Shown here in pieces: positions 3,010-28,750 of a DNA stretch of 28,750 nucleotides (position 1 is its first letter; each line of letters opens with the position of its first letter). The translations under genes and the position numbers were made by a program. The stretch spans positions 1 through 28,750 of the IMG/VR virus record IMGVR_UViG_3300030372_004814. One strand, written 5' to 3'. This DNA is from a virus. Its lineage: Duplodnaviria > Caudoviricetes. Below the pieces are notes generated by a model. It saw nothing but the letters and a program-made list of their open reading frames with translations. It searched no databases and was not told the DNA's origin.

Positions 3010-3039
3010 TTGTTTATAAGGAAAAAAGTAGTATATTTG
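3010..3039 (+). promoter_or_regulatory. Bacteroidota primary-sigma promoter (-33 TTG, 19-nt spacer, -7 TATATTTG)
   Basis: TTG at 3010-3012 and TAnnTTTG at 3032-3039 with a 19-nt spacer, matching the flavobacterial consensus; intergenic, upstream of ORF 3083. Confidence 0.8.
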
Positions 3040-3082
3040 TTATAACAAACAAACAGAAATAATAATTTTAAAAAATACAATT

Positions 3083-3304
3083 ATGACAAATACAATTCAA
3101 CTTCAAGAAATAGGTTTAGTAAAAGGAACTCCAGCTGGACAAATTAAAGTAGGTACTACTTTATTATGGAACTTTGGACACACTAGCAAAGTAAAAGCTA
3201 TAACAAAAGAAACTCAAAAAAGTATATGGTTTATAACTGAAACTAAAGAAGGTAATACTTATACTAGAAGATTTTTAAAAACTAGAGTAATAGGAACATT
3301 ATAA
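3083..3304 (+). CDS. Hypothetical small beta-rich protein (moron gene)
   Basis: 73-aa ORF with its own promoter and terminator between terL and portal. Confidence 0.75.
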   Translation: MTNTIQLQEIGLVKGTPAGQIKVGTTLLWNFGHTSKVKAITKETQKSIWFITETKEGNTYTRRFLKTRVIGTL

Positions 3305-3312
3305 TAATAAAT

Positions 3313-3342
3313 GGGAGGAGTTTAAAAGCTCCTCCTTTTTTT
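3313..3342 (+). terminator. Rho-independent terminator
   Basis: GGAGGAGTT-TAAA-AGCTCCTCC stem-loop followed by T7. Confidence 0.85.
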
Positions 3343-3356
3343 AAAACAGAAATAAG

Positions 3357-3599
3357 ATGAAAATATATATAGTAAATTGGTATGATGTAGATGGCCATCC
3401 ATCTCCCTTACAAAATAGAGGATTTGTAAATAAAAAAGAGGCTGTAAGTTTTAGGAGTAAATTGAATAAAACTTTTAAAAAAGGAGAAGATTATATATCT
3501 CCTACAGATGACTCTAAGGCTAATAGATTTGTAGATCCTGTAAGTGTAATAGATATACCTATTTCTAAAAAAGGATTAATAAGAGCTTTTAATATGTAA
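3357..3599 (+). CDS. Hypothetical protein
   Basis: 80-aa ORF, tightly packed with its neighbours; AAAACAGAAA motif upstream of the start. Confidence 0.7.
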   Translation: MKIYIVNWYDVDGHPSPLQNRGFVNKKEAVSFRSKLNKTFKKGEDYISPTDDSKANRFVDPVSVIDIPISKKGLIRAFNM

Positions 3600-3601
3600 T
3601 T

Positions 3602-3814
3602 ATGGAATATCAAAAATTTAGATTTTGTATGAGATGTCAAAGAATGGCTCTAATAAAAGTAGATGGCTGTTTTATATGTAAAGGATCTTTTATTTTAGAT
3701 TCTCCTAAGCCTGATAGTTTTTTAGCAAATATGAAAAAATACAATAAACAGAAAATAAATAAACAGAAACAAAATTATGAAAATGAATTACTACAGCTTA
3801 AAAAAACTGATTAA
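3602..3814 (+). CDS. Hypothetical zinc-ribbon protein
   Basis: CMRC...CFIC (two CxxC pairs) in a 70-aa ORF. Confidence 0.6.
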   Translation: MEYQKFRFCMRCQRMALIKVDGCFICKGSFILDSPKPDSFLANMKKYNKQKINKQKQNYENELLQLKKTD

Positions 3815-4061
3815 AGGATATAGAGTAGCTCCTACTTTAAAAAGTAAGACTCTAATAGCTATACCTGAAAAAAAGCTATATAGTCAGTATGGCTTTATAC
3901 CTATTATAGTTAATTTTAAGGATAAAAAAATGAGTATTACTAGGAATACTCCTATACTACATAAGGAGCAATTTAGAGACAAATTTAATAGAGGTACTTT
4001 TTATACTTTATTTTATTATGAATGGAATCCTAATAAATTACAATTAGAGTTAAGTATATAA
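3777..4061 (+). CDS. Hypothetical protein
   Basis: 94-aa ORF; AAACAGAAACAAA motif immediately upstream of the ATG. Confidence 0.7.
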   Translation: MKMNYYSLKKLIKGYRVAPTLKSKTLIAIPEKKLYSQYGFIPIIVNFKDKKMSITRNTPILHKEQFRDKFNRGTFYTLFYYEWNPNKLQLELSI

Positions 4062-11900: not shown

Positions 11901-12152
11901 ATGTATAAAGTTAAATTAATAAAAAATAGTGAGTATGGTAAAATGGGAAAATATATGAATCCTATGGATAGGGATTCTTATATTAGTCTATATAATGCAG
12001 GATTAATAGAGGATGAGCATAATTTAATAAAAGATAAAACAGAGAAAAAAGCAAAAGACAAAACAGAGAAAAAAGCAAAAGACAAAACAGAAAAAAAGGA
12101 CTCAAAAAATAAAGATATTAATTTAAAAATAGATAATCATGGCGATAATTAA
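11901..12152 (+). CDS. Small Lys-rich hypothetical protein with tandem KDKTEKKA repeats
   Basis: 83-aa ORF between the terminator-like and tail-tube genes. Confidence 0.7.
   Translation: MYKVKLIKNSEYGKMGKYMNPMDRDSYISLYNAGLIEDEHNLIKDKTEKKAKDKTEKKAKDKTEKKDSKNKDINLKIDNHGDN
12030..12101 (+). repeat. 3 x 24-bp in-frame tandem repeat
   Basis: AAAGAYAAAACAGARAAAAARGMM units at 12030, 12054 and 12078. Confidence 0.9.
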
Positions 12153-12576
12153 TGGTACTAATATGGTACTTAAAGTAGATGATACAGCTAGTTATACTGG
12201 AGAAAATATTATAGGAGCTGCTACATCATGTACCTTAAATATAACTACAGATGTTAATGAGGTTACTGATAAAAGCTCTGGAGACAGGAGAGAGTATATA
12301 GGCTTAGCTACTTCTTATACTATAGATGCTGAGGTATTTTATAATGAAACTGAGACTGTTAATGCAAACACTTTATTTCAGAGGATGTATGGTAATAGTA
12401 CAGCTTCACAAAATGGAGTAATACAGTATCCTACTAAAGTAGATTTTACTTTTGATTGTGGTACAAAAGAATATTCAGGATCAGGATTTATTTCTTCAAT
12501 GAGTATAACAGGAGGTACTGAGGATGCTGGTACTTATTCTATAAGTATTCAAGGATCAGGGGAATTAACTGACTAA
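12139..12576 (+). CDS. Major tail tube protein (TP901-1-like), paralogue 1
   Basis: INGTN..L, IGAATSCTLNI, TDKSSG..REYI, YSGSGFISSMSI, TYSISIQGSGEL. Confidence 0.88.
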   Translation: MAIINGTNMVLKVDDTASYTGENIIGAATSCTLNITTDVNEVTDKSSGDRREYIGLATSYTIDAEVFYNETETVNANTLFQRMYGNSTASQNGVIQYPTKVDFTFDCGTKEYSGSGFISSMSITGGTEDAGTYSISIQGSGELTD

Positions 12577-12601
12577 TAATAAATAAATAAAATAATAAAA
12601 A

Positions 12602-13075
12602 ATGGCTGTTAAAACAATTTCAGGGAGTAATTTAATTTTAGGAGTAGATCTTACTGGAGGTACTTCTTTTACTGCAATAGGAGGCTCTACTGCTTGTACT
12701 TTAAATATTAATCAGGAAACTATAGACATCTCTAATAAAGGCTCTAATGGTAATAAAGAATTTATGAATGGAGCTAGGAGCTGGAGCATAGACTGTGAGG
12801 CTTATTTTACAGATGGAGATACTACATCTACTGATATACCTATTAGAGATGGAGATGGATCAGGAGGAGGCTCAGCTACTGGATGGTATCCATCTTTAGA
12901 GGCTGGTACTAAGATTAATGTACAATTTAGTACTACTACAGGACAGGCTGGAGCTACTAAATATACAGGAGATGGATATATTACATCTATATCTCTTAAT
13001 GGAGCTATAGGGGAATGGAGTACTTACTCTGTTAGTATTCAGGGTACTGGATCTCTAATAGATTCTGATGTATAG
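12602..13075 (+). CDS. Major tail tube protein (TP901-1-like), paralogue 2
   Basis: ISGSNLIL, IGGSTACTLNI, SNKGSNG.KEFM.GARSWSI, YTGDGYITSISL, TYSVSIQGTGSL. Confidence 0.88.
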   Translation: MAVKTISGSNLILGVDLTGGTSFTAIGGSTACTLNINQETIDISNKGSNGNKEFMNGARSWSIDCEAYFTDGDTTSTDIPIRDGDGSGGGSATGWYPSLEAGTKINVQFSTTTGQAGATKYTGDGYITSISLNGAIGEWSTYSVSIQGTGSLIDSDV

Positions 13076-21968: not shown

Positions 21969-22469
21969 ATGAGATTATCTAGATCATTTAATATTTCTGA
22001 ATTTCTTAATAGTAATGTTTCTATAAGATTAGGATTAAAATTAGATCCTCCTAATGAGCATATAGATAATATGAGTTTATTATGTAGAGATTTATTACAG
22101 CCTTTAAGAGATAAGCTAGCTAGGCCTATTAAAATAAATTCAGGATGGAGGAGCTATGAGCTTAATAAAGCAATAGGAGGAGCTTATAAAATAATAGATG
22201 GTAAATATATACCTACTTCTCAGCATTGTAAAGGACAGGCTGCTGATCTAAAATTTATAGATAATAATGGTAAAATGAATAATAAAATATTATTTGATAC
22301 TGTATTAGAGATGGGTTTAGAGTTTGATCAGATGATTAATGAGTTTAATTATAGCTGGATTCATATAAGTTATAATAAAGGTAATAATAGAAATCAATTA
22401 CTAGAGGCTTATAAAAATGAGGATAATAAAACTATATATCAAAATGTAATTAACTATAAAGGATTATGA
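21969..22469 (+). CDS. Endolysin, peptidase M15A family
   Basis: LSRSFNISEF, INSGWRS..LNKAIGG, SQHCKGQAAD, WIHISY zinc-ligand motifs. Confidence 0.92.
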   Translation: MRLSRSFNISEFLNSNVSIRLGLKLDPPNEHIDNMSLLCRDLLQPLRDKLARPIKINSGWRSYELNKAIGGAYKIIDGKYIPTSQHCKGQAADLKFIDNNGKMNNKILFDTVLEMGLEFDQMINEFNYSWIHISYNKGNNRNQLLEAYKNEDNKTIYQNVINYKGL

Positions 22470-22861
22470 TAAAAAGTATTATTAAAAATTTAGTATCTGA
22501 TTCTAGTAAAATACTAGATGAGGTTATAACTACTGATGAGGAGAGATTAAAGGCTAAGCATGAGCTAAAGTCTTTACTTAAAAATCATGAGCAGACTATG
22601 TATCAGCTGGAGGTAGAGGATAGAAAGTCAGCCAGGATAATGTATCAAAATGATAGTAATATACAGAAGATACTAGCTACTATATTTACTGTAGCTTATT
22701 TTATATTAAGTTTTTTATTAGCTAGATACTTTGTAATTGGAGATATAAATTTAGGAGAGTTTGAGATCAGTTTTATTAGTACTTTATTTGGAGCTATGAG
22801 TGCTAAGGTTAATACTATTATTGATTTCTTTTTTGGGGGATCATCTAAAAAAGACAAATGA
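22466..22861 (+). CDS. Holin (GTA holin-like)
   Basis: DEVITTDEER, DRKSAR, two hydrophobic segments and FFFGGSS end; adjacent to the endolysin. Confidence 0.75.
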   Translation: MIKSIIKNLVSDSSKILDEVITTDEERLKAKHELKSLLKNHEQTMYQLEVEDRKSARIMYQNDSNIQKILATIFTVAYFILSFLLARYFVIGDINLGEFEISFISTLFGAMSAKVNTIIDFFFGGSSKKDK

Positions 22862-23625
22862 GCTATAGGCCTAGATTAAATAAATATGTATATGATTTTA
22901 TCAACTATCATAAGAGATCTAATGTAGTAGGAATTATATCAGATACTCATTATCCTTTTGCTCATAAAGATCATTTAAATTTTTTATATGAAACTTTTAA
23001 TAAATTTCAAGTTAATAGAGTAGTACATATAGGAGATTTAGTAGATGGACATAGCTGGAGCTATCATGAGTCTAGTAATACAGCAGATTCTCCATCTAAA
23101 GAGTCAGAATTAGCTCAAAAGGATATAGATAAATTAAAAAAGACTTTTAATACTTTAGATCTTACATTGGGGAATCATGATTTATTAATATCTAGGAGAG
23201 CTACTACTCATAATATCCCTAATAAATTTTTAAAATCTTTTGAGGAGATATGGAACTTCCCTAAAGGATGGAAAGCTCATAACCATATAACTATAGATGA
23301 TGTTTTATATATTCATGGTACTGGTAAAAGTGGAGTTAATGCAAGTGTATCTTTAATGACAGATTATAGACAGTCTGTAGTATCAGGACATACTCATAGT
23401 GCTGGAGGAGTAAGCTATAGAGCATCTTATAGAGATATTACTTTTGGCCTTAATGTAGGCTGTTTAATAGATGTAGATAGCTATGCTATGGAATATGGGA
23501 AAAACTTTAGTAAAAAGCCTACTCTAGGCTGTGGAATAGTAATAGATGGTAAGGTAGGATTTTTTATACCTATGGATCTAGGATCTAAAATCAGTTATTG
23601 TAAGAAATCAACATCCCATTGTTAA
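22858..23625 (+). CDS. Calcineurin-like metallophosphoesterase
   Basis: SDTH, GDLVD, GNHD, HG and GHTH motifs. Confidence 0.92.
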   Translation: MSYRPRLNKYVYDFINYHKRSNVVGIISDTHYPFAHKDHLNFLYETFNKFQVNRVVHIGDLVDGHSWSYHESSNTADSPSKESELAQKDIDKLKKTFNTLDLTLGNHDLLISRRATTHNIPNKFLKSFEEIWNFPKGWKAHNHITIDDVLYIHGTGKSGVNASVSLMTDYRQSVVSGHTHSAGGVSYRASYRDITFGLNVGCLIDVDSYAMEYGKNFSKKPTLGCGIVIDGKVGFFIPMDLGSKISYCKKSTSHC

Positions 23626-23697
23626 TAACAATCATTATTAAAATTTTCTTTTTAAGTAGTTTATAAGTTAATTTGTACAAACAAAAAAAAATACAAT

Positions 23698-23784
23698 ATG
23701 GAAAAATTAGCTATGATATTAATAAAATTAGGATTCATTTATTTTATAGGTAGATTTTTAATTACATTAATATTTAATATTTAG
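23698..23784 (+). CDS. Unannotated 28-aa hydrophobic peptide (MEKLAMILIKLGFIYFIGRFLITLIFNI)
   Basis: Translated by hand. It has an A-rich leader typical of Bacteroidota initiation and lies downstream of a near-consensus -7 element (TTAATTTG, 23668-23675). Confidence 0.6.
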   Translation: MEKLAMILIKLGFIYFIGRFLITLIFNI

Positions 23785-23822
23785 TTTATATTTTGGGGGT
23801 AAGTAGTATAGGTTAATCTACA

Positions 23823-23830
23823 TATCTTTG
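23823..23830 (+). promoter_or_regulatory. Bacteroidota -7 promoter element (TATCTTTG)
   Basis: TAnnTTTG match in an intergenic gap at the head of the early/replication gene run. Confidence 0.55.
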
Positions 23831-23834
23831 TTAT

Positions 23835-24155
23835 GTGATAAACATATATGAATTTATGGACAGCCTATACTACTTATTAGAAACTAATAATATTACATTA
23901 GAGGAGGATATTCAGAGAGACAAAGCTATCAGAATATTATTAGAGCATAAAAAAAAATATGCTACTAAAGAGATAACAGATAAAAAAATTATAGATGTTT
24001 ACAGAAAAAAAGGGATGGAGGAGATTAAAAAATACTTTAATAGGAATGTATGTTATTTATATTCTACGATTTTTTGTTATGATGTATTATTTTATCATTA
24101 TAAAAATGACTGGAGAAAATTAGAAAAAATTATAAAAAGTAGATTAGATGACTAA
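23835..24155 (+). CDS. Hypothetical protein (true start may be ATG 23856)
   Basis: The ORF overlaps the next gene; the GTG at 23835 is very close to the -7 element. Confidence 0.65.
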   Translation: MINIYEFMDSLYYLLETNNITLEEDIQRDKAIRILLEHKKKYATKEITDKKIIDVYRKKGMEEIKKYFNRNVCYLYSTIFCYDVLFYHYKNDWRKLEKIIKSRLDD

Positions 24156-24471
24156 AAGAAAAAAAGAGCTTAAATTAACTCAAAAAGATATAGCAGATGT
24201 AATTAAAACTATAGAGATTCAGTTTGATACTATGGATAAAGATGAGAAAAAAGCTATATTAAAAAAATTAGGAATATCTAAAAATGATATAGAAAAATTA
24301 GATGATACTGGATTAGTTAATAAAGTAAAATCAGAGTATAATAAAGTATTACCTAATATAGATTTAAATAATTTTAGTTTAGATAGAAAATATATAATAG
24401 CTAATGAGTATATAAGTAAAAAGAAAAAAACAGAATTAAAAAAAGAAATAGAAGATTATAAAAAATTATAA
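24148..24471 (+). CDS. Hypothetical protein
   Basis: 107-aa charged helical ORF overlapping the previous gene. Confidence 0.7.
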   Translation: MTKRKKELKLTQKDIADVIKTIEIQFDTMDKDEKKAILKKLGISKNDIEKLDDTGLVNKVKSEYNKVLPNIDLNNFSLDRKYIIANEYISKKKKTELKKEIEDYKKL

Positions 24472-24474
24472 AAC

Positions 24475-24621
24475 ATGGAGCAATTAGATACAAGGGATTA
24501 CAGATTATTATTATCTGTATTACATAATGAGAAACTAGATCCTACTGATAGAGTAGCTTTAGATTTAGTAAAATTAAAATTATTATCAAAAGTAAATAAA
24601 TTAAGTAAATATTATGAATAG
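24475..24621 (+). CDS. Unannotated 48-aa hypothetical protein (MEQLDTRDYRLLLSVLHNEKLDPTDRVALDLVKLKLLSKVNKLSKYYE)
   Basis: Translated by hand; it fills the gap between 24471 and 24614 and overlaps the next ATG. Confidence 0.65.
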   Translation: MEQLDTRDYRLLLSVLHNEKLDPTDRVALDLVKLKLLSKVNKLSKYYE

Positions 24622-25027
24622 AGATAAATTAAAAGATATATATAAAAAATATGATTTAGAGCAAGATGATATTTTTATATTAAAATTTGGATCAAAAGAA
24701 AAACCTATTATTACTAGATCAGGTATTGAGAGGATACAGAATAAAGAAAAAATACAGTTAAATTTTAAAATAGAGAAAATATCAGAGGATCAAAAAAGCT
24801 GTATTATGTTAGCTCATGGAGTTATAATGACTGATCATCCTGATAAAAATGGACAGTTAGTACCTAAAGTAATGGCTCAATCTTTTGGAGAGGTATCTCC
24901 CGAAAATAATAAAAGTAATTATCCTATAGCAATCTGCGAAAAAAGAGCAGCAGCTAGAGTAATCCTCAAATTAGCTAATCTAATAGGATTTTATTCAGAG
25001 GATGAGTCTGAGGATTTTAAAAAATGA
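24614..25027 (+). CDS. Putative single-strand annealing/recombination protein (Rad52/ERF-like)
   Basis: SFGE...YPIAICEKRAAARVILKL..FYSEDE C-terminal pattern; near the SSB-like gene. Confidence 0.45.
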   Translation: MNRDKLKDIYKKYDLEQDDIFILKFGSKEKPIITRSGIERIQNKEKIQLNFKIEKISEDQKSCIMLAHGVIMTDHPDKNGQLVPKVMAQSFGEVSPENNKSNYPIAICEKRAAARVILKLANLIGFYSEDESEDFKK

Positions 25028-25242
25028 TGGCTTATTATATAATATTATGTAATAATACATCTGATATTTTAGTAAGATGTAATAAAGATGATCTATTAGA
25101 TATTTTATTAATGTTAGATAAGGATAATGATTTTGATGTAATAGATTATTTTGAGTATAGATCTGAGGAGTATAAAATGTTAATTTATGGAGATGATTAT
25201 ATAGCTGATGATAATATTATAGATCATGCAATCAGTAAATAG
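25024..25242 (+). CDS. Small acidic hypothetical protein
   Basis: 72 aa, Asp-rich, overlapping both neighbours. Confidence 0.6.
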   Translation: MMAYYIILCNNTSDILVRCNKDDLLDILLMLDKDNDFDVIDYFEYRSEEYKMLIYGDDYIADDNIIDHAISK

Positions 25243-25666
25243 ATTAGTAAGGATATGCTGTTATTATAATAAGGTAAAATTTGCTGATTTTTACAATGTT
25301 TTTAGTAATAATAGGATTAAAGACTGTAGATCAATAGTATATAATATATTATTACTGGAATTAAATTTTAATATTTATCAAATATCAGATTATTTTAATA
25401 AGCCTGTAAAATACATAGAGGATCTTATTAATCATCATAAGTCAGAGTATGAAATAATTAATCATTATACTAAGGCCTATCAGAATACTTTTACTCAGTT
25501 TGAAAATTGGAGTAATTCAGAGCTAGATTTAGCATATAGTATAGTAAAGACTAAATATGATTATGATAATGAGATTAAATATGAGCAGATACTTAATGAT
25601 AATTGTAGATTAGAGCATGAAATAGATATATTAAAAATTAAATTAAATAAAAAAAGTTATGTATAA
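25226..25666 (+). CDS. Putative DnaA C-terminal-like HTH DNA-binding protein with coiled-coil tail
   Basis: CRSIVYNIL...FNIYQISDYFNK pattern resembling the DnaA domain IV HTH. Confidence 0.4.
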   Translation: MQSVNRLVRICCYYNKVKFADFYNVFSNNRIKDCRSIVYNILLLELNFNIYQISDYFNKPVKYIEDLINHHKSEYEIINHYTKAYQNTFTQFENWSNSELDLAYSIVKTKYDYDNEIKYEQILNDNCRLEHEIDILKIKLNKKSYV

Positions 25667-26021
25667 AATAAGAGGTAGAATTATAAATTTTAGAACTGAA
25701 ACAATTAATCTAAAAGATGGAGAAACAGCTCAGAAAATGTTTATTACCATAGAGGAATCAGATACAGGATTTAACCATAAACATCAGTTTGAGATCTTTG
25801 GAGAAACTAAAATAAATTTATTAAAGGATAAAATAAAACAAGATAGATTTGTGAAAATTGATTTTTATATTAAATCAAACGAATGGAAAGACAAATTTTT
25901 TAATACATTAAATATAAAAAATGTAATATTAGAGGATGAGGTATCTATGCCTGATATGTCAGTATATGAGGAGGAGGATCATCAAGCAGAGGAGGAGGAA
26001 AAAAATAAAATACCTTTTTAA
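25659..26021 (+). CDS. SSB-like OB-fold protein (DUF3127-like)
   Basis: IRGRI, FEIFGE, VKIDFYIKSNEWKDKFFNTL and an acidic tail ending IPF. Confidence 0.8.
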   Translation: MYKIRGRIINFRTETINLKDGETAQKMFITIEESDTGFNHKHQFEIFGETKINLLKDKIKQDRFVKIDFYIKSNEWKDKFFNTLNIKNVILEDEVSMPDMSVYEEEDHQAEEEEKNKIPF

Positions 26022-26040
26022 TAACTAAAAAAACAGAAAC

Positions 26041-26829
26041 ATGGCTAAATATAGACAGATACATACAACATTTTGGAATGATCCTTTAATACTGGATTTA
26101 ACTCCTGAGCAGAAATATTTTTATTTATACTTACTTACTAATCCTAATGTAAAACAGGCTGGAATTTATGAGATCAGCATGAGACAAATTACTTATCATA
26201 CAGGTTATAATAAGGAAACTGTAGAGAAATTATTAGAGCTATTTGTAGGATTAAATAAAATAGTAATTAGTAAAAAGACTAATGAGATAGCTATAGTTAA
26301 TTTTTTAAAATATAATTATTCAGCATCTCCTACAGTAAAAAAATGTATAGAGAATGAATTAGAGGAGGTAAAAAATAAAGAATTAATAAAGTATATATAC
26401 AGTATAGATAGTCTAGATATAGAGTATAGTAGTAATAATAAGAATAATAATAAGAATAATAATAATAATAAAAATAATAATAAGAATATTTTACCATCTA
26501 CAGAGGAGTCTTTTAAAGAATATGTATATAGTTTAGATAATAAAGAACATCATAAGGATTTTATAGATTACTGGACAGAAAAAAGCTTAACAGGTAAAAT
26601 GAGATATATGCTAGAGAAAACATTTAGTATAGAAAAAAGATTATCAAGATGGAGCAGGAGTACCTTTGCTAAAAAAAATAATGGTATGCCTGATTATTAC
26701 GATAAGGCCTATGCAGCTAGAATAGGACAGGATCAAACAAAGCAAAAGGAGTATAGAAATCATTTAATAAGTTTAGGTTATGAGCAAAAATACTCATATA
26801 ATGGAGAGCCTACATGGGTAAAAAAATAA
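26041..26829 (+). CDS. Phage replication initiator (replisome organiser-type)
   Basis: MAKYRQIHTTFWND...LTPEQKYFYLYLLTN...GIYEI winged-helix N-terminus, low-complexity linker, FIDYWTE...RLSRW C-domain. Confidence 0.8.
   Translation: MAKYRQIHTTFWNDPLILDLTPEQKYFYLYLLTNPNVKQAGIYEISMRQITYHTGYNKETVEKLLELFVGLNKIVISKKTNEIAIVNFLKYNYSASPTVKKCIENELEEVKNKELIKYIYSIDSLDIEYSSNNKNNNKNNNNNKNNNKNILPSTEESFKEYVYSLDNKEHHKDFIDYWTEKSLTGKMRYMLEKTFSIEKRLSRWSRSTFAKKNNGMPDYYDKAYAARIGQDQTKQKEYRNHLISLGYEQKYSYNGEPTWVKK
26391..26487 (+). repeat. Low-complexity repeats inside the initiator gene, candidate replication origin
   Basis: (A)GTATA/ATAGA-type short repeats at 26391-26432, followed by (AATAATAAG/AAT)n at 26434-26487 encoding NNKNNNKNNNNNKNNNKN. 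Confidence 0.5.
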
Positions 26830-27032
26830 TTATGGAGTTTTTAAAAAATTTTAGAAATAGAAATTTAAAAAATAAGTATTTAGATAATAGTACTTATATA
26901 TATGCTGTAGATGTAGAGTCTATTTTAATAGATATAAAACATAGTACTATATCAGATTTAGATAATAAAATAAATAATTACCTTTTAAAAATAGAGGATT
27001 TAATAGAAGAAAATAAAAATGGAGTTAGATAA
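26814..27032 (+). CDS. Hypothetical protein (start may be ATG 26832)
   Basis: ORF between the initiator and the next gene. Confidence 0.6.
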   Translation: MGKKIIMEFLKNFRNRNLKNKYLDNSTYIYAVDVESILIDIKHSTISDLDNKINNYLLKIEDLIEENKNGVR

Positions 27033-27435
27033 GTTACCAATAAAAGATATATATAATTTAGTAATAGAGGGAGAAATAGATCCTCTAAAGGCTGTTATAG
27101 TATTAAAAGAAATAGAGAAAAAAGCTAAGGAGTACAAGTGTATGATAGATGATATAGCTTTAGATGAGATTACTAAATATGGTAGAGGAGGTACTGAAAT
27201 AGATGGATATTCTGTTAGTGTAAGATCATCAGCAGGTAGATGGGATTTTAAGCATATAAAAGATATTACAGATCTAGAGAAACAATTAAAAGAATTAAAA
27301 GAAAAACATAAAGCAGCTTATAATCAGATGACTAGAAATCTTACAACTTTAGGAGAGGGAGGAGAGGTAATAATACCAGCTAATTATAAACAAGGTAAGG
27401 AGATAATAGTAATATCTAAATTAAAAAATGATTAA
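27019..27435 (+). CDS. Hypothetical coiled-coil phage protein
   Basis: 138 aa, helical, overlapping its neighbours. Confidence 0.75.
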   Translation: MELDKLPIKDIYNLVIEGEIDPLKAVIVLKEIEKKAKEYKCMIDDIALDEITKYGRGGTEIDGYSVSVRSSAGRWDFKHIKDITDLEKQLKELKEKHKAAYNQMTRNLTTLGEGGEVIIPANYKQGKEIIVISKLKND

Positions 27436-27793
27436 TCATAAAAAAATATATTGCAATTATTTTGGATATGATGTGGGAGATGTTATTATATGTGAGGTAT
27501 GTAAATATAACTGTAAGCAGCCTTTTGCATTTAGCTTAGGATTACCAGCTGTATTAAAGGAGGCTGTAGATATACATCATATAATACCTAGAGCTATGGG
27601 AGGAGCAAAGGGTAATAAGATAAGAGGTACAGAAAATTATAGAGATTATCCTGAGAATCTTATAGCTTTATGCAGAGAATGTCATGAGGAGGTAGAGAGA
27701 TGTAAAGAAAAAAATAAGAGATGTTATGTTATACATTTAAAGAATATAATAAATAAAATAGAGGAGGATGATTTAAATAAAATAAACTGGTAA
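27428..27793 (+). CDS. HNH endonuclease
   Basis: CEVC...VDIHHI.PRAMGG...NLIALCRECH. Confidence 0.88.
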   Translation: MINHKKIYCNYFGYDVGDVIICEVCKYNCKQPFAFSLGLPAVLKEAVDIHHIIPRAMGGAKGNKIRGTENYRDYPENLIALCRECHEEVERCKEKNKRCYVIHLKNIINKIEEDDLNKINW

Positions 27794-27993
27794 TGACTAA
27801 ATTATATATGGATAATAAAAAGAATAATATAGAGAATGCAGCTGTAGAATACTTTACTTATATAGGAGAGAGAGCTGTAGTATATAATAAGAAAATAAAT
27901 AAGGAGATAGCAGGCCTAGATAAATTTAATAAGGAACAAAAAAAAGTTATAAAAGAATTTTTTATACATCTATTAAAGGAGTTAGATAAATAG
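27793..27993 (+). CDS. Hypothetical protein
   Basis: 66-aa ORF with a TAATG stop/start overlap. Confidence 0.6.
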   Translation: MTKLYMDNKKNNIENAAVEYFTYIGERAVVYNKKINKEIAGLDKFNKEQKKVIKEFFIHLLKELDK

Positions 27994-28004
27994 ATTATAT
28001 TTTG

Positions 28005-28012
28005 TATCTTTG
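28005..28012 (+). promoter_or_regulatory. Bacteroidota -7 promoter element (TATCTTTG)
   Basis: TAnnTTTG match 11 nt after a stop codon and directly upstream of the structured RNA. Confidence 0.65.
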
Positions 28013-28096
28013 TATAGTATCTCTTATGAGGTATTGTATTTGTTTCTGTTTTATGTAAAGGCTTATAGATCTCCGATTTATAGGCCTTTGCTGTTT
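28013..28096 (+). ncRNA. Candidate small antisense regulatory RNA (hairpin - U-rich seed - hairpin)
   Basis: 11-bp stem 28013-28038 and 17-bp stem 28055-28091, each with 3 G-U pairs, which fixes the + strand. The linker is complementary to several start-proximal sites. Confidence 0.65.
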
Positions 28097-28108
28097 AATA
28101 TATATAAT

Positions 28109-28330
28109 ATGGATGAGATAAGTATAGATGACTTTTTAGATATGGCTGGTAATAATGTATATGATACAGAGTATTCTCATAAGTTAAATATTAGCTGTAA
28201 GCATACTACATATAGAATGTTTAAAGAATTAAAATATAAATTGAATAAGATGGATATTAAAGTAAATAATGCACAGTTATTTGAGTATATGGTAGTAGAG
28301 ATGTATAATAGTAATTTAAATAGTTTATAA
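28109..28330 (+). CDS. Hypothetical protein, possible ribbon-helix-helix-like DNA binder (start moved from TTG 28010 to ATG 28109)
   Basis: In-frame ATG with an AT-rich leader after the RNA structure; KLNISC beta strand followed by two helices. Confidence 0.55.
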   Translation: MDEISIDDFLDMAGNNVYDTEYSHKLNISCKHTTYRMFKELKYKLNKMDIKVNNAQLFEYMVVEMYNSNLNSL

Positions 28331-28335
28331 TAGTT

Positions 28336-28674
28336 ATGCCTTATTTACCTACTACTACAAAATATAAGTGGATTAGAAAAATTAAAAAGGATCATGATAA
28401 GTCTTATTCTGATCCTAAATATAGTAAGATATACAATAGCAATAGATGGAGAAAATTAAGGAGCTGGTTTATAAAAAGAAATCCTCTCTGTGTTATATGT
28501 AATAAAAATAATATAAGTACAGCAGCTAGAGTAGTAGATCATATAAAGGAGATAGCTGATGGAGGTAGTGTATGGAGTGCTAGTAATTTACAGAGTCTAT
28601 GTGATAGATGTCATAGAGTTAAGACAGCTAAGGCTGTAAACAGGAGAAAATATAAAAAAAATAAAGAGGGATAG
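28336..28674 (+). CDS. HNH endonuclease, HK97 gp74-like terminase cofactor
   Basis: YNSNRWRKLR...PLCVIC...VVDHI....GG...NLQSLCDRCHRVKT; last gene before the putative cos region. Confidence 0.9.
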   Translation: MPYLPTTTKYKWIRKIKKDHDKSYSDPKYSKIYNSNRWRKLRSWFIKRNPLCVICNKNNISTAARVVDHIKEIADGGSVWSASNLQSLCDRCHRVKTAKAVNRRKYKKNKEG

Positions 28675-28750
28675 GTATGTTAAAAAAAAATAATAATTAA
28701 CAGGTATAGGGAGGGTACTCCGAATCATACCAAAAAAAAAATCTGTATAT

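Follow-up and report, generated by a model that had tools for sequence, protein, structure and literature searches.

Among the RNAs encoded by phages, the CI RNA of phage P4 is grouped with the c4 RNA and acts in trans on phage mRNA. How early genes are turned off in small phages without an RNA polymerase or sigma factor of their own is a largely open question, and the number of regulatory RNAs described from phages is small (PreS preprint, available part). The subject of this study is an element at positions 28005 to 28097 on the + strand of a 28,750-base stretch of DNA from a tailed phage (Duplodnaviria; Caudoviricetes), which is the full record IMGVR_UViG_3300030372_004814 and is called the window below. 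The element is predicted to be transcribed into a small RNA of about 80 nucleotides (nt) with an open, U-rich seed complementary to the leader regions of the replication initiator gene and of other early genes. Structure, polarity, complementarity and the co-variation of seed and leaders are established by sequence and by comparison of relatives. The element is probably a conserved gene in a family of uncultured marine phages, coding for a + strand RNA of this size, which would repress translation of the initiator and of early genes in trans and lead to a delayed shut-off of these genes.

The c4 RNA of phages P1 and P7 (PMC5320573, available part) resembles the predicted RNA as a phage RNA of about 80 nt that acts in trans near ribosome-binding sites, and also in that its seed and target differ jointly between related phages. 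It is described there with three stem-loops, cut from a precursor by RNase P, pairing by two loops and serving temperate immunity, whereas the element combines two hairpins with a single linear seed and carries a promoter box of its own, and its predicted targets are dispersed over three transcription units. The three-stem structure of c4 is not present in the element, and the scans with Rfam gave no c4 match.

FopS and GibS of Bacteroides thetaiotaomicron (PMC11697453, available part) possess a sigma-A promoter, a single-stranded 5' seed and an intrinsic terminator, and the element has the same parts with an extra short 5' hairpin. Another likeness is that, in a phylum that does not rely on Shine-Dalgarno pairing, one RNA is directed at the initiation regions of several mRNAs. 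By pairing at the initiation region, FopS-10 blocks translation, with rescue by compensatory changes, and a FopS copy was reported in a tailed phage (PMC11697453, same part). FopS and GibS are, however, multicopy host RNAs with a conserved seed acting on host polysaccharide genes, while the element is predicted to specify a single-copy phage RNA for the initiator and early genes of the same phage, whose seed varies together with these genes. Rfam 15 gave no FopS or GibS match near the gathering score; FopS was deposited in Rfam according to PMC11697453, and the presence of this model in the copy used is unconfirmed.

The SviR RNA of the Vibrio cholerae satellite PLE acts in trans on multiple targets near their starts, lowers translation and has, as predicted for the element, also targets in its own genome (bioRxiv 10.1101/2022.04.08.487710, available part). 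It differs as an RNA of a satellite against its helper phage, with two seeds and in a host using Shine-Dalgarno pairing, and the available part of that preprint notes no co-evolving address on early genes. P22 sar, lambda OOP, aQ, the antisense RNAs of PAK_P4, VpdS and PreS are likewise phage RNAs that tune the life cycle at the post-transcriptional level (PMC12197685, available part). Unlike the multi-target element, sar, OOP and aQ act on one gene each; PreS and VpdS work with Hfq, the former mainly on host genes and the latter on mRNAs of both host and phage (PMC12197685; PreS preprint). None of the RNAs in the available part of PMC12197685 is a multi-target RNA directed against the early and replication starts of the phage itself, and no description of such an RNA was found in the literature, with mostly open-access coverage. 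Three files of the catalogue of structured RNAs from IMG/VR (PMC10690425, available part) contained no match, other files of the catalogue being outside that search, and the catalogue may hold the motif without a function.

The element begins with the box TATCTTTG at 28005-28012 (+), a −7 box of the Bacteroidota sigma-A type, located exactly where an earlier reading of the sequence alone (the sequence-only reading) had placed it. Since the sigma-A box TAnnTTTG of Flavobacteria is positioned at −12 to −5 (PMC9723704, available part), the predicted start of the RNA is around 28017. The start is thus probably inside the 5' arm of hairpin 1 as drawn by the sequence-only reading. The drawn stem of 12 to 13 base pairs (bp) does fold in the window, but its length is not conserved. 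From the predicted start, hairpin 1 comprises 7 bp (28017-28034, +), and its conserved core is 4 bp, 28020-28023 with 28028-28031. A long hairpin 1 as a feature of the family was ruled out, as relatives keep the 4-bp core alone, which is weak or broken in some of them. The open, U-rich seed follows at 28035-28054 (+) with an unpaired probability of about 0.9, and opening of 28039-28053 costs 0.1 kcal/mol in the predicted fold. Hairpin 2 (17 bp, 28055-28091) with its T-rich tail, together 28055-28097 (+), is terminator-like, the sole + strand site of this type within 22000-28750, and ends an operon. The proposed architecture of two hairpins with an open linker was borne out by a fold of 28010-28100 at −34 kcal/mol (z of −7.6, equalled by none of 200 shuffles); the predicted RNA from 28017 to 28097 (+) folds at −27.9 kcal/mol. 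Transcription would begin from the host-type box at 28005 and terminate at hairpin 2, and the 3' end of the mRNA of the upstream early operon may carry the same seed, too. Rfam 15 returned nothing near the gathering score in the window and none in 9 related loci.

Relatives were collected using the 73-amino-acid (aa) open reading frame (ORF) behind the element as bait, which gave 48 loci from viral and metagenome contigs, and the element was sought in 46 of these (L044 and L048 were skipped as duplicates of L043). It was present in 45 of the 46 loci, which makes, with the window, 34 distinct versions, every one of which combines a box with a U-rich stretch and a strong hairpin followed by a T-rich tail. 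The box, chosen in the relatives with a lax pattern, was an exact TAnnTTTG in 21 of the 34 versions and a one- or two-base variant in 13, and most relatives have the common seed core TTGTATTG. The covariance model made for the element gave 77 bits at 28014-28102. An unfitted alignment of 16 sequences contained 20 pairs, 11 of them with two-sided changes. In the alignment fitted to the model, which takes in two weak − strand matches among its 35, 94.8% of the cells were paired versus 73.1% in shuffles and 39 to 57% when slid, with two-sided changes at all 20 pairs and, for hairpin 2 alone, at 16 of 16. Structure and seed are thus conserved in relatives, as judged by the covariance model and the 34 versions. 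Hairpin 2 was more stable on the + strand in 34 of 34 versions (mean stability −19.7 on + versus −9.3 on −), which indicates a + strand RNA, as proposed before from the window only.

In six loci, other genes stand between the element and the 73-aa ORF while the element stays in place, so it is not the leader of the 73-aa gene. Translation of the region from TTG 28010 was considered and rejected: the frame of the downstream ATG is open across the element in just 5 of the 34 versions, the spacing to this ATG is spread across all three frames with no conserved reading frame, and the length of other short overlapping frames varies among relatives. The true start of the 73-aa ORF (28109-28330, +) is ATG 28109. 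Separate observations concern the surroundings of these elements. Extra genes are inserted directly 3' of the element at L009:6446-7142 and in L018, L027, L030, L038 and L043, several of them methyltransferase-like by motif, and L017:9875-9990 contains an extra hairpin between seed and terminal hairpin. In the window, a hairpin over the end of the terminase gene (2876-2957) is a weak − strand match to the model (23 bits, E 0.44) with strands of about equal stability.

Matches inside the window were counted against the reverse complement of 28031-28053, and all five sites from the sequence-only reading were found again, each on the + strand. The initiator site at 26030-26041 matches in 12 of 12 positions and would pair with 28041-28052; it extends from −11 into the start codon of the initiator gene (26041-26829), of which it includes the A. 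The site 23679-23698 (18/20) forms the leader of a 28-aa ORF (23698-23784), the first gene of the early/replication operon. Three sites belong to a cassette of small genes behind the terminase: 3342-3356, with 13 of 15 identities and both mismatches G-U-compatible, before ORF 3357-3599 (rank 1 of 46 starts); 3761-3773 (13/13) before ORF 3777-4061, with a second AAACAGAAA at 3746; and a split site within 3051-3081 (3051-3062 with 11/12 plus 3073-3081 with 9/9) in the leader that separates ORF 3083-3304 from the promoter box at 3032. An added candidate is the leader 24442-24474 (+) of the 48-aa ORF 24475-24621 (rank 9 of 46), whose pairing is weak in the window genome and stronger in relatives. 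The targets other than the initiator match overlapping parts of the seed.

The word AAACAGAAA occurs six times on the + strand versus a Markov expectation of 0.4 to 1.3, and its complement once, in the linker. Five of the six copies are 35 nt or less upstream of a start, and the sixth (12085) is in a lysine-rich repeat of ORF 11901. It was present in 4 of 46 leaders compared to 0.06 in shuffled leaders, a number reached by 0 of 1000 shuffles, so that seed matches are indeed enriched at starts. When the 32 nt before hairpin 2 were shuffled, an equally shared 9-mer appeared in 14 of 1000 cases. A ranking by duplex energy did not separate the seed from shuffled seeds, the own best five of which matched the five best of the 46 starts in 177 of 1000 cases. 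Evidence from the window alone is moderate and suggestive, and the case rests on the relatives. Apart from this, three AAACAGA copies 24 nt apart (12037-12093) encode a KTEKKAKD repeat in ORF 11901.

Across the relatives, the initiator leader paired with its own seed at −15.97 and with other seeds at −12.13 kcal/mol (n = 23 distinct pairs, permutation p ≤ 5e-5), while the control leaders of SSB (n = 19, p = 0.16) and HNH (n = 25, p = 0.62) had no own-seed advantage. A blind search of each locus with its initiator leader returned the element as the best + strand complement in 20 of 25 loci and among the top three in 23 of 25; in the window it was first of 575 bins, and control genes gave 0/21 and 0/25. 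The matches end at the start codon: they reach the A of the AUG and begin, in the median, at −13 (n = 23). Evaluation of these values needs to consider that an ordinary early-operon terminator behind a U-rich filler, with accidental matches to A-rich leaders, would also have a terminator-like hairpin 2 at the end of an operon and an energy ranking without significance in the window alone. Accidental matches, however, cannot make own pairs beat swapped pairs across relatives, and no preference for the own seed is seen in A-rich control leaders, that of SSB among them, leaving chance a very improbable source of the matches.

The other starts were ranked in 23 genomes or loci, using 44 gene groups and one merged slot. 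The six best-ranked groups, all of them early-region genes, were 3357, the initiator, 3777, 24475 and the two main forms of the first early-operon gene, and the initiator ranked 1 to 5 among the starts in 22 of the 23. Correction for 45 tests left the own-seed advantage intact for the initiator (p = 2e-4) and for the first gene of the early operon, with p = 4e-4 in either main form and p = 2e-4 (n = 22) in the merged slot. The third, smaller form of this slot had no advantage (p = 0.75). The advantage was nominal for 24475 (p = 0.013, n = 13, group median in the top 8%) and 3357 (p = 0.02, n = 6), and not significant for the 3777 group (p = 0.19, n = 7), which is in the top 7% of starts. Two groups from the structural region had nominal p values of 0.011 and 0.027 with poor ranks. 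For the first post-terminase gene, which follows the split site, p was 0.002 in 8 genomes, with the slot doubtfully placed in 3 of them. The tests of post-terminase targets comprised 6 to 8 genomes only because 13 metagenome loci could not be extended to whole contigs. By this comparison, the initiator and the first early-operon gene are strongly supported as targets, and 3357 and the first post-terminase gene moderately supported; 3777, with its high rank, and the added 24475 are candidates. The idea of the sequence-only reading that one RNA silences an early and replication regulon is supported by conservation, enrichment at starts and co-variation.

Some of these target regions were variable in gene content. 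The first slot of the early operon is occupied across relatives by one of three unrelated small genes encoding 28, 53 or 68 aa. Region 3032-4061 of the window, between terminase and portal, comprises four small genes with their own promoter box and a terminator-like hairpin around 3312-3336; its first gene is swapped among relatives, with the seed-matching leader retained in several. For ORF 3777, the Atlas gave no usable match.

As a control for kinship, 26 of 27 genomes were paired with their nearest neighbours, yielding 13 independent pairs. Own pairing was better in 9, worse in 2 and tied in 2 pairs (p = 0.019), totals that include L072 and L073 with seeds holding the promoter (corrected values −13.2 and −8.4). 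Within the 13 genomes of the seed type of the window, an own-seed advantage was also present (p = 4.5e-4). Single pairs illustrate the switch. L066 has a different seed from L017 and forms a 16-bp duplex with its own leader, although the N-termini of the initiators are 93% identical, and swapping the partners would cost 14.9 kcal/mol; L006 and L040 are 90% identical with a swap cost of 14.1 kcal/mol. In L070 and L071, seed and leader pair in two separate helices.

A joint switch of seed and target between relatives this close, like that of P1/P7 c4, may also mean that the same RNA, produced by a carrier or an already infected cell, silences by the same pairing the initiator and early genes of an incoming phage of the same seed type, so that seed switching would create immunity groups. 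The 46 ORFs of the window, searched in PHROGs and Pfam, contained no integrase or repressor family, and the RNA could replace a repressor. No partition family was matched either, many early ORFs were without a family, and ORF 24148 gave a faint hint of an HTH repressor (E 0.03). Moreover, the common core TTGTATTG in most relatives would lead to cross-immunity. In the cultured Cellulophaga phage phi39:1, to be described below, a like element is located behind the capsid gene, where it would not be expressed in a silent carrier, and shut-off is favored over a silent carrier state for this reason. Of the two roles considered by the sequence-only reading, an early-to-late switch and immunity, we infer that delayed shut-off of early and replication genes is the most likely, with immunity as the main but rather unlikely rival.

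Several further points weigh against a shut-off RNA. There was no element in L025, one of the 46 loci; the element ranked only sixth in the blind search in L027 and L028; and pairing with the own initiator leader is weak in L073 (−8.4). Being related, the genomes are not independent samples, and 13 of the 24 inner branches of the tree are open. The tail behind hairpin 2 is a weak terminator in the window genome, and the box of the element is of the same host type as the early boxes, so nothing in the window genome shows late timing. Species-genome scans for the 73-aa protein and the portal gave no relative, and the host, of the Bacteroidota/Flavobacteria type, is inferred from promoter signals. 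Top-five energies in the window were, as given above, not beyond those of shuffled seeds. A comparison that speaks for pairing, in which two target leaders of one genome were nearer to the seed complement than to each other (8.1 versus 10.5, n = 16, p = 0.002), is limited by the use of a seed slightly longer than the leaders. Finally, changes in seed-target pairs had no significant G-U bias (C>T 19/108 versus G>A 4/29, p = 0.78; A>G 4/412 versus T>C 1/54, p = 0.46).

The latter test, which gave pairing no support, would agree with seed and leaders being bound by one phage protein, and varying along with it, without any RNA-RNA pairing, either as a double-stranded DNA operator, inverted at 28040, or as RNA. 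A possible ribbon-helix-helix protein adjoins the element, and three of the sites are just downstream of promoter boxes. Those at 3342, 3761 and 26030, however, lack such a box, and their position follows the start codon; the part of the seed that is matched differs between targets, which are also less similar to one another than to the seed complement; and the two separate helices in L070 and L071 also disagree with a common binding site. An RNA decoy would need the − strand, on which hairpin 2 is half as stable. A protein recognizing all these sites is therefore quite improbable.

Repression by the predicted RNA could proceed as follows. Host RNA polymerase would make the RNA from 28017 to about 28095, and its open seed would pair with the initiator leader and, by overlapping parts, with the other leaders. 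Flavobacteria initiate translation without Shine-Dalgarno pairing, helped by adenines at −3, −6, −12 and −13, and the start-adjoining window matched by the seed is the one that tunes initiation in Flavobacterium johnsoniae (PMC6847099, available part). Pairing from about −13 to the A of the AUG would hide these adenines and block loading of the 30S subunit. Shielded by hairpins at both ends, the RNA may accumulate with time and genome copy number. The outcome would be a delayed negative feedback that limits early proteins to a pulse and sets an upper bound to replication initiation ahead of packaging.

Elements of like design were also present in more distant phages. From 61 further loci gathered with the initiator, 23 were selected by a search for the element pattern, and in this second lineage the element is about 2.3 to 3.7 kilobases (kb) upstream of the initiator (for example, L074:5277, L077:6762, L085:6981, L090:6972 and L106:2199, plus 18 more loci). 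A lax box was found in 22 of the 23 loci, and the hairpin was more stable on the + strand in all 23. The seed holds an anti-start codon, and the − strand frame has just 4 to 45 codons. With the anti-start part removed, an own-seed advantage remained for the first downstream ORF (n = 19, p = 1e-4) and an ERF-like gene (n = 13, p = 6e-4), and none was found for the leaders of the lysozyme (n = 7, p = 0.24) or the initiator (n = 20, p = 0.17). The covariance model does not reach this lineage (best E 0.1 to 0.7). With neither a link by the model nor an own-seed advantage of the initiator, its element has to be regarded as an analogue.

Phage phi39:1 (NC_021804.1, 28,760 bp) was reached by a capsid search with 26% identity; it shares the genome plan of the window, not the sequence of the element. 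The 11-nt word CAATTAAACAA occurs in five copies on its + strand (expected 0.02 to 0.05), each directly before a start, namely those of gp01, gp02, gp06 (twice) and gp38. Its sole complement is directly before the terminator behind the major capsid gene (L132:7548-7612), which is a late position. A generic test asked for a 9-mer shared by leaders and mirrored immediately 5' of a strong hairpin. The site of phi39:1 was first of 19 hairpin calls and the element of the window first of 21, and shuffles reached the same count in 19 and 14 of 1000 cases, respectively. The evidence for phi39:1 comes from this one genome, and Rfam gave no match near the gathering score at its element. At the place matching 3032-4061 of the window, phi39:1 also has four small genes.

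The position of like elements at the end of late genes, found in both the second lineage and phi39:1, bears on an exchange of the roles, in which the element would be the leader of the transcript for the 73-aa ORF, HNH and terminase, and early mRNAs binding to the linker would control read-through at hairpin 2. The element adjoins the packaging genes on their 5' side, and the terminase is preceded by no further intergenic TAnnTTTG box, which resembles the leader of a late operon that yields a short, terminated transcript; co-variation alone is silent on which partner is regulated. The linker, however, has no overlap with the arms of hairpin 2 and is unpaired to begin with, so that its binding would have no evident effect on termination, and the target sites are tied to start codons. 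Together with the late position elsewhere, this renders early mRNAs as the regulators improbable, and shut-off of the early genes by the RNA is preferred. The three unrelated seeds at three genomic positions in the family of the window, the second lineage and phi39:1 suggest repeated invention or relocation. Tentatively, Bacteroidota phages may widely use an RNA address system, in which the early genes, the replication initiator included, bear leader tags recognized and silenced by one reader RNA, with tags and reader switching jointly between close relatives; this would be a repressor-free timer that doubles as type-specific exclusion in phages considered lytic, but this extension is less likely than the shut-off in the window itself.

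Natural co-variation between seed and target identifies the candidate regulator together with its seed and main target, a kind of evidence that is seldom available for a bacterial small RNA, and variants already present in nature can serve as compensatory alleles. With the counterpart in phi39:1, the question enters a cultured phage-host pair. If true, the repression by the RNA would explain the odd leader motifs common to the early genes of these phages and offer a rule by which early genes could be recognized from sequence where ORFs are unannotated.

The window has 29.6% G+C, all long genes on the + strand and an HK97-type gene plan, as assigned with PHROGs and Pfam to its 46 ORFs. A methyltransferase gene is followed by the terminases, the four small ORFs (3083-4061), portal to tail, lysis, a run of small genes with SSB (DUF3127), the replication initiator at 26041, which matches the PHROGs replisome organizer with an E of 1e-43, the 73-aa ORF and HNH. 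Intergenic TAnnTTTG boxes are located at 3032, 4120, 23823 and 28005. No cultured close relative was found by DNA or by protein searches with initiator, terminase, SSB, capsid and ERF. The 73-aa protein has 76 homologs, in a family found solely in these phages in the present searches. Its nearest named families in the Atlas, MetJ and RHH_1 at 0.90, are a lead only, and it is a possible ribbon-helix-helix regulator, which could set the timing of the shut-off. The predicted fold has a mean predicted local distance difference test score of 69 and a best Z of 4.4, with no Foldseek match under an E of 1.

Other features were noted in the same genomes. The records G000 to G003, G007 and G009 have 28.7 to 30.1 kb and are rated 41 to 46% complete; those examined end 400 to 700 nt past the 73-aa gene, which suggests whole cos-type genomes instead of fragments. 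In the window, the initiator gene contains AAT-rich tandem repeats at 26423-26482, a possible origin region. A conserved 146-aa ORF at 25226-25666 without a family match appears HTH-like by eye only and may encode a transcription regulator, and two major-tail-protein paralogues are arranged in tandem at 12139-13075.
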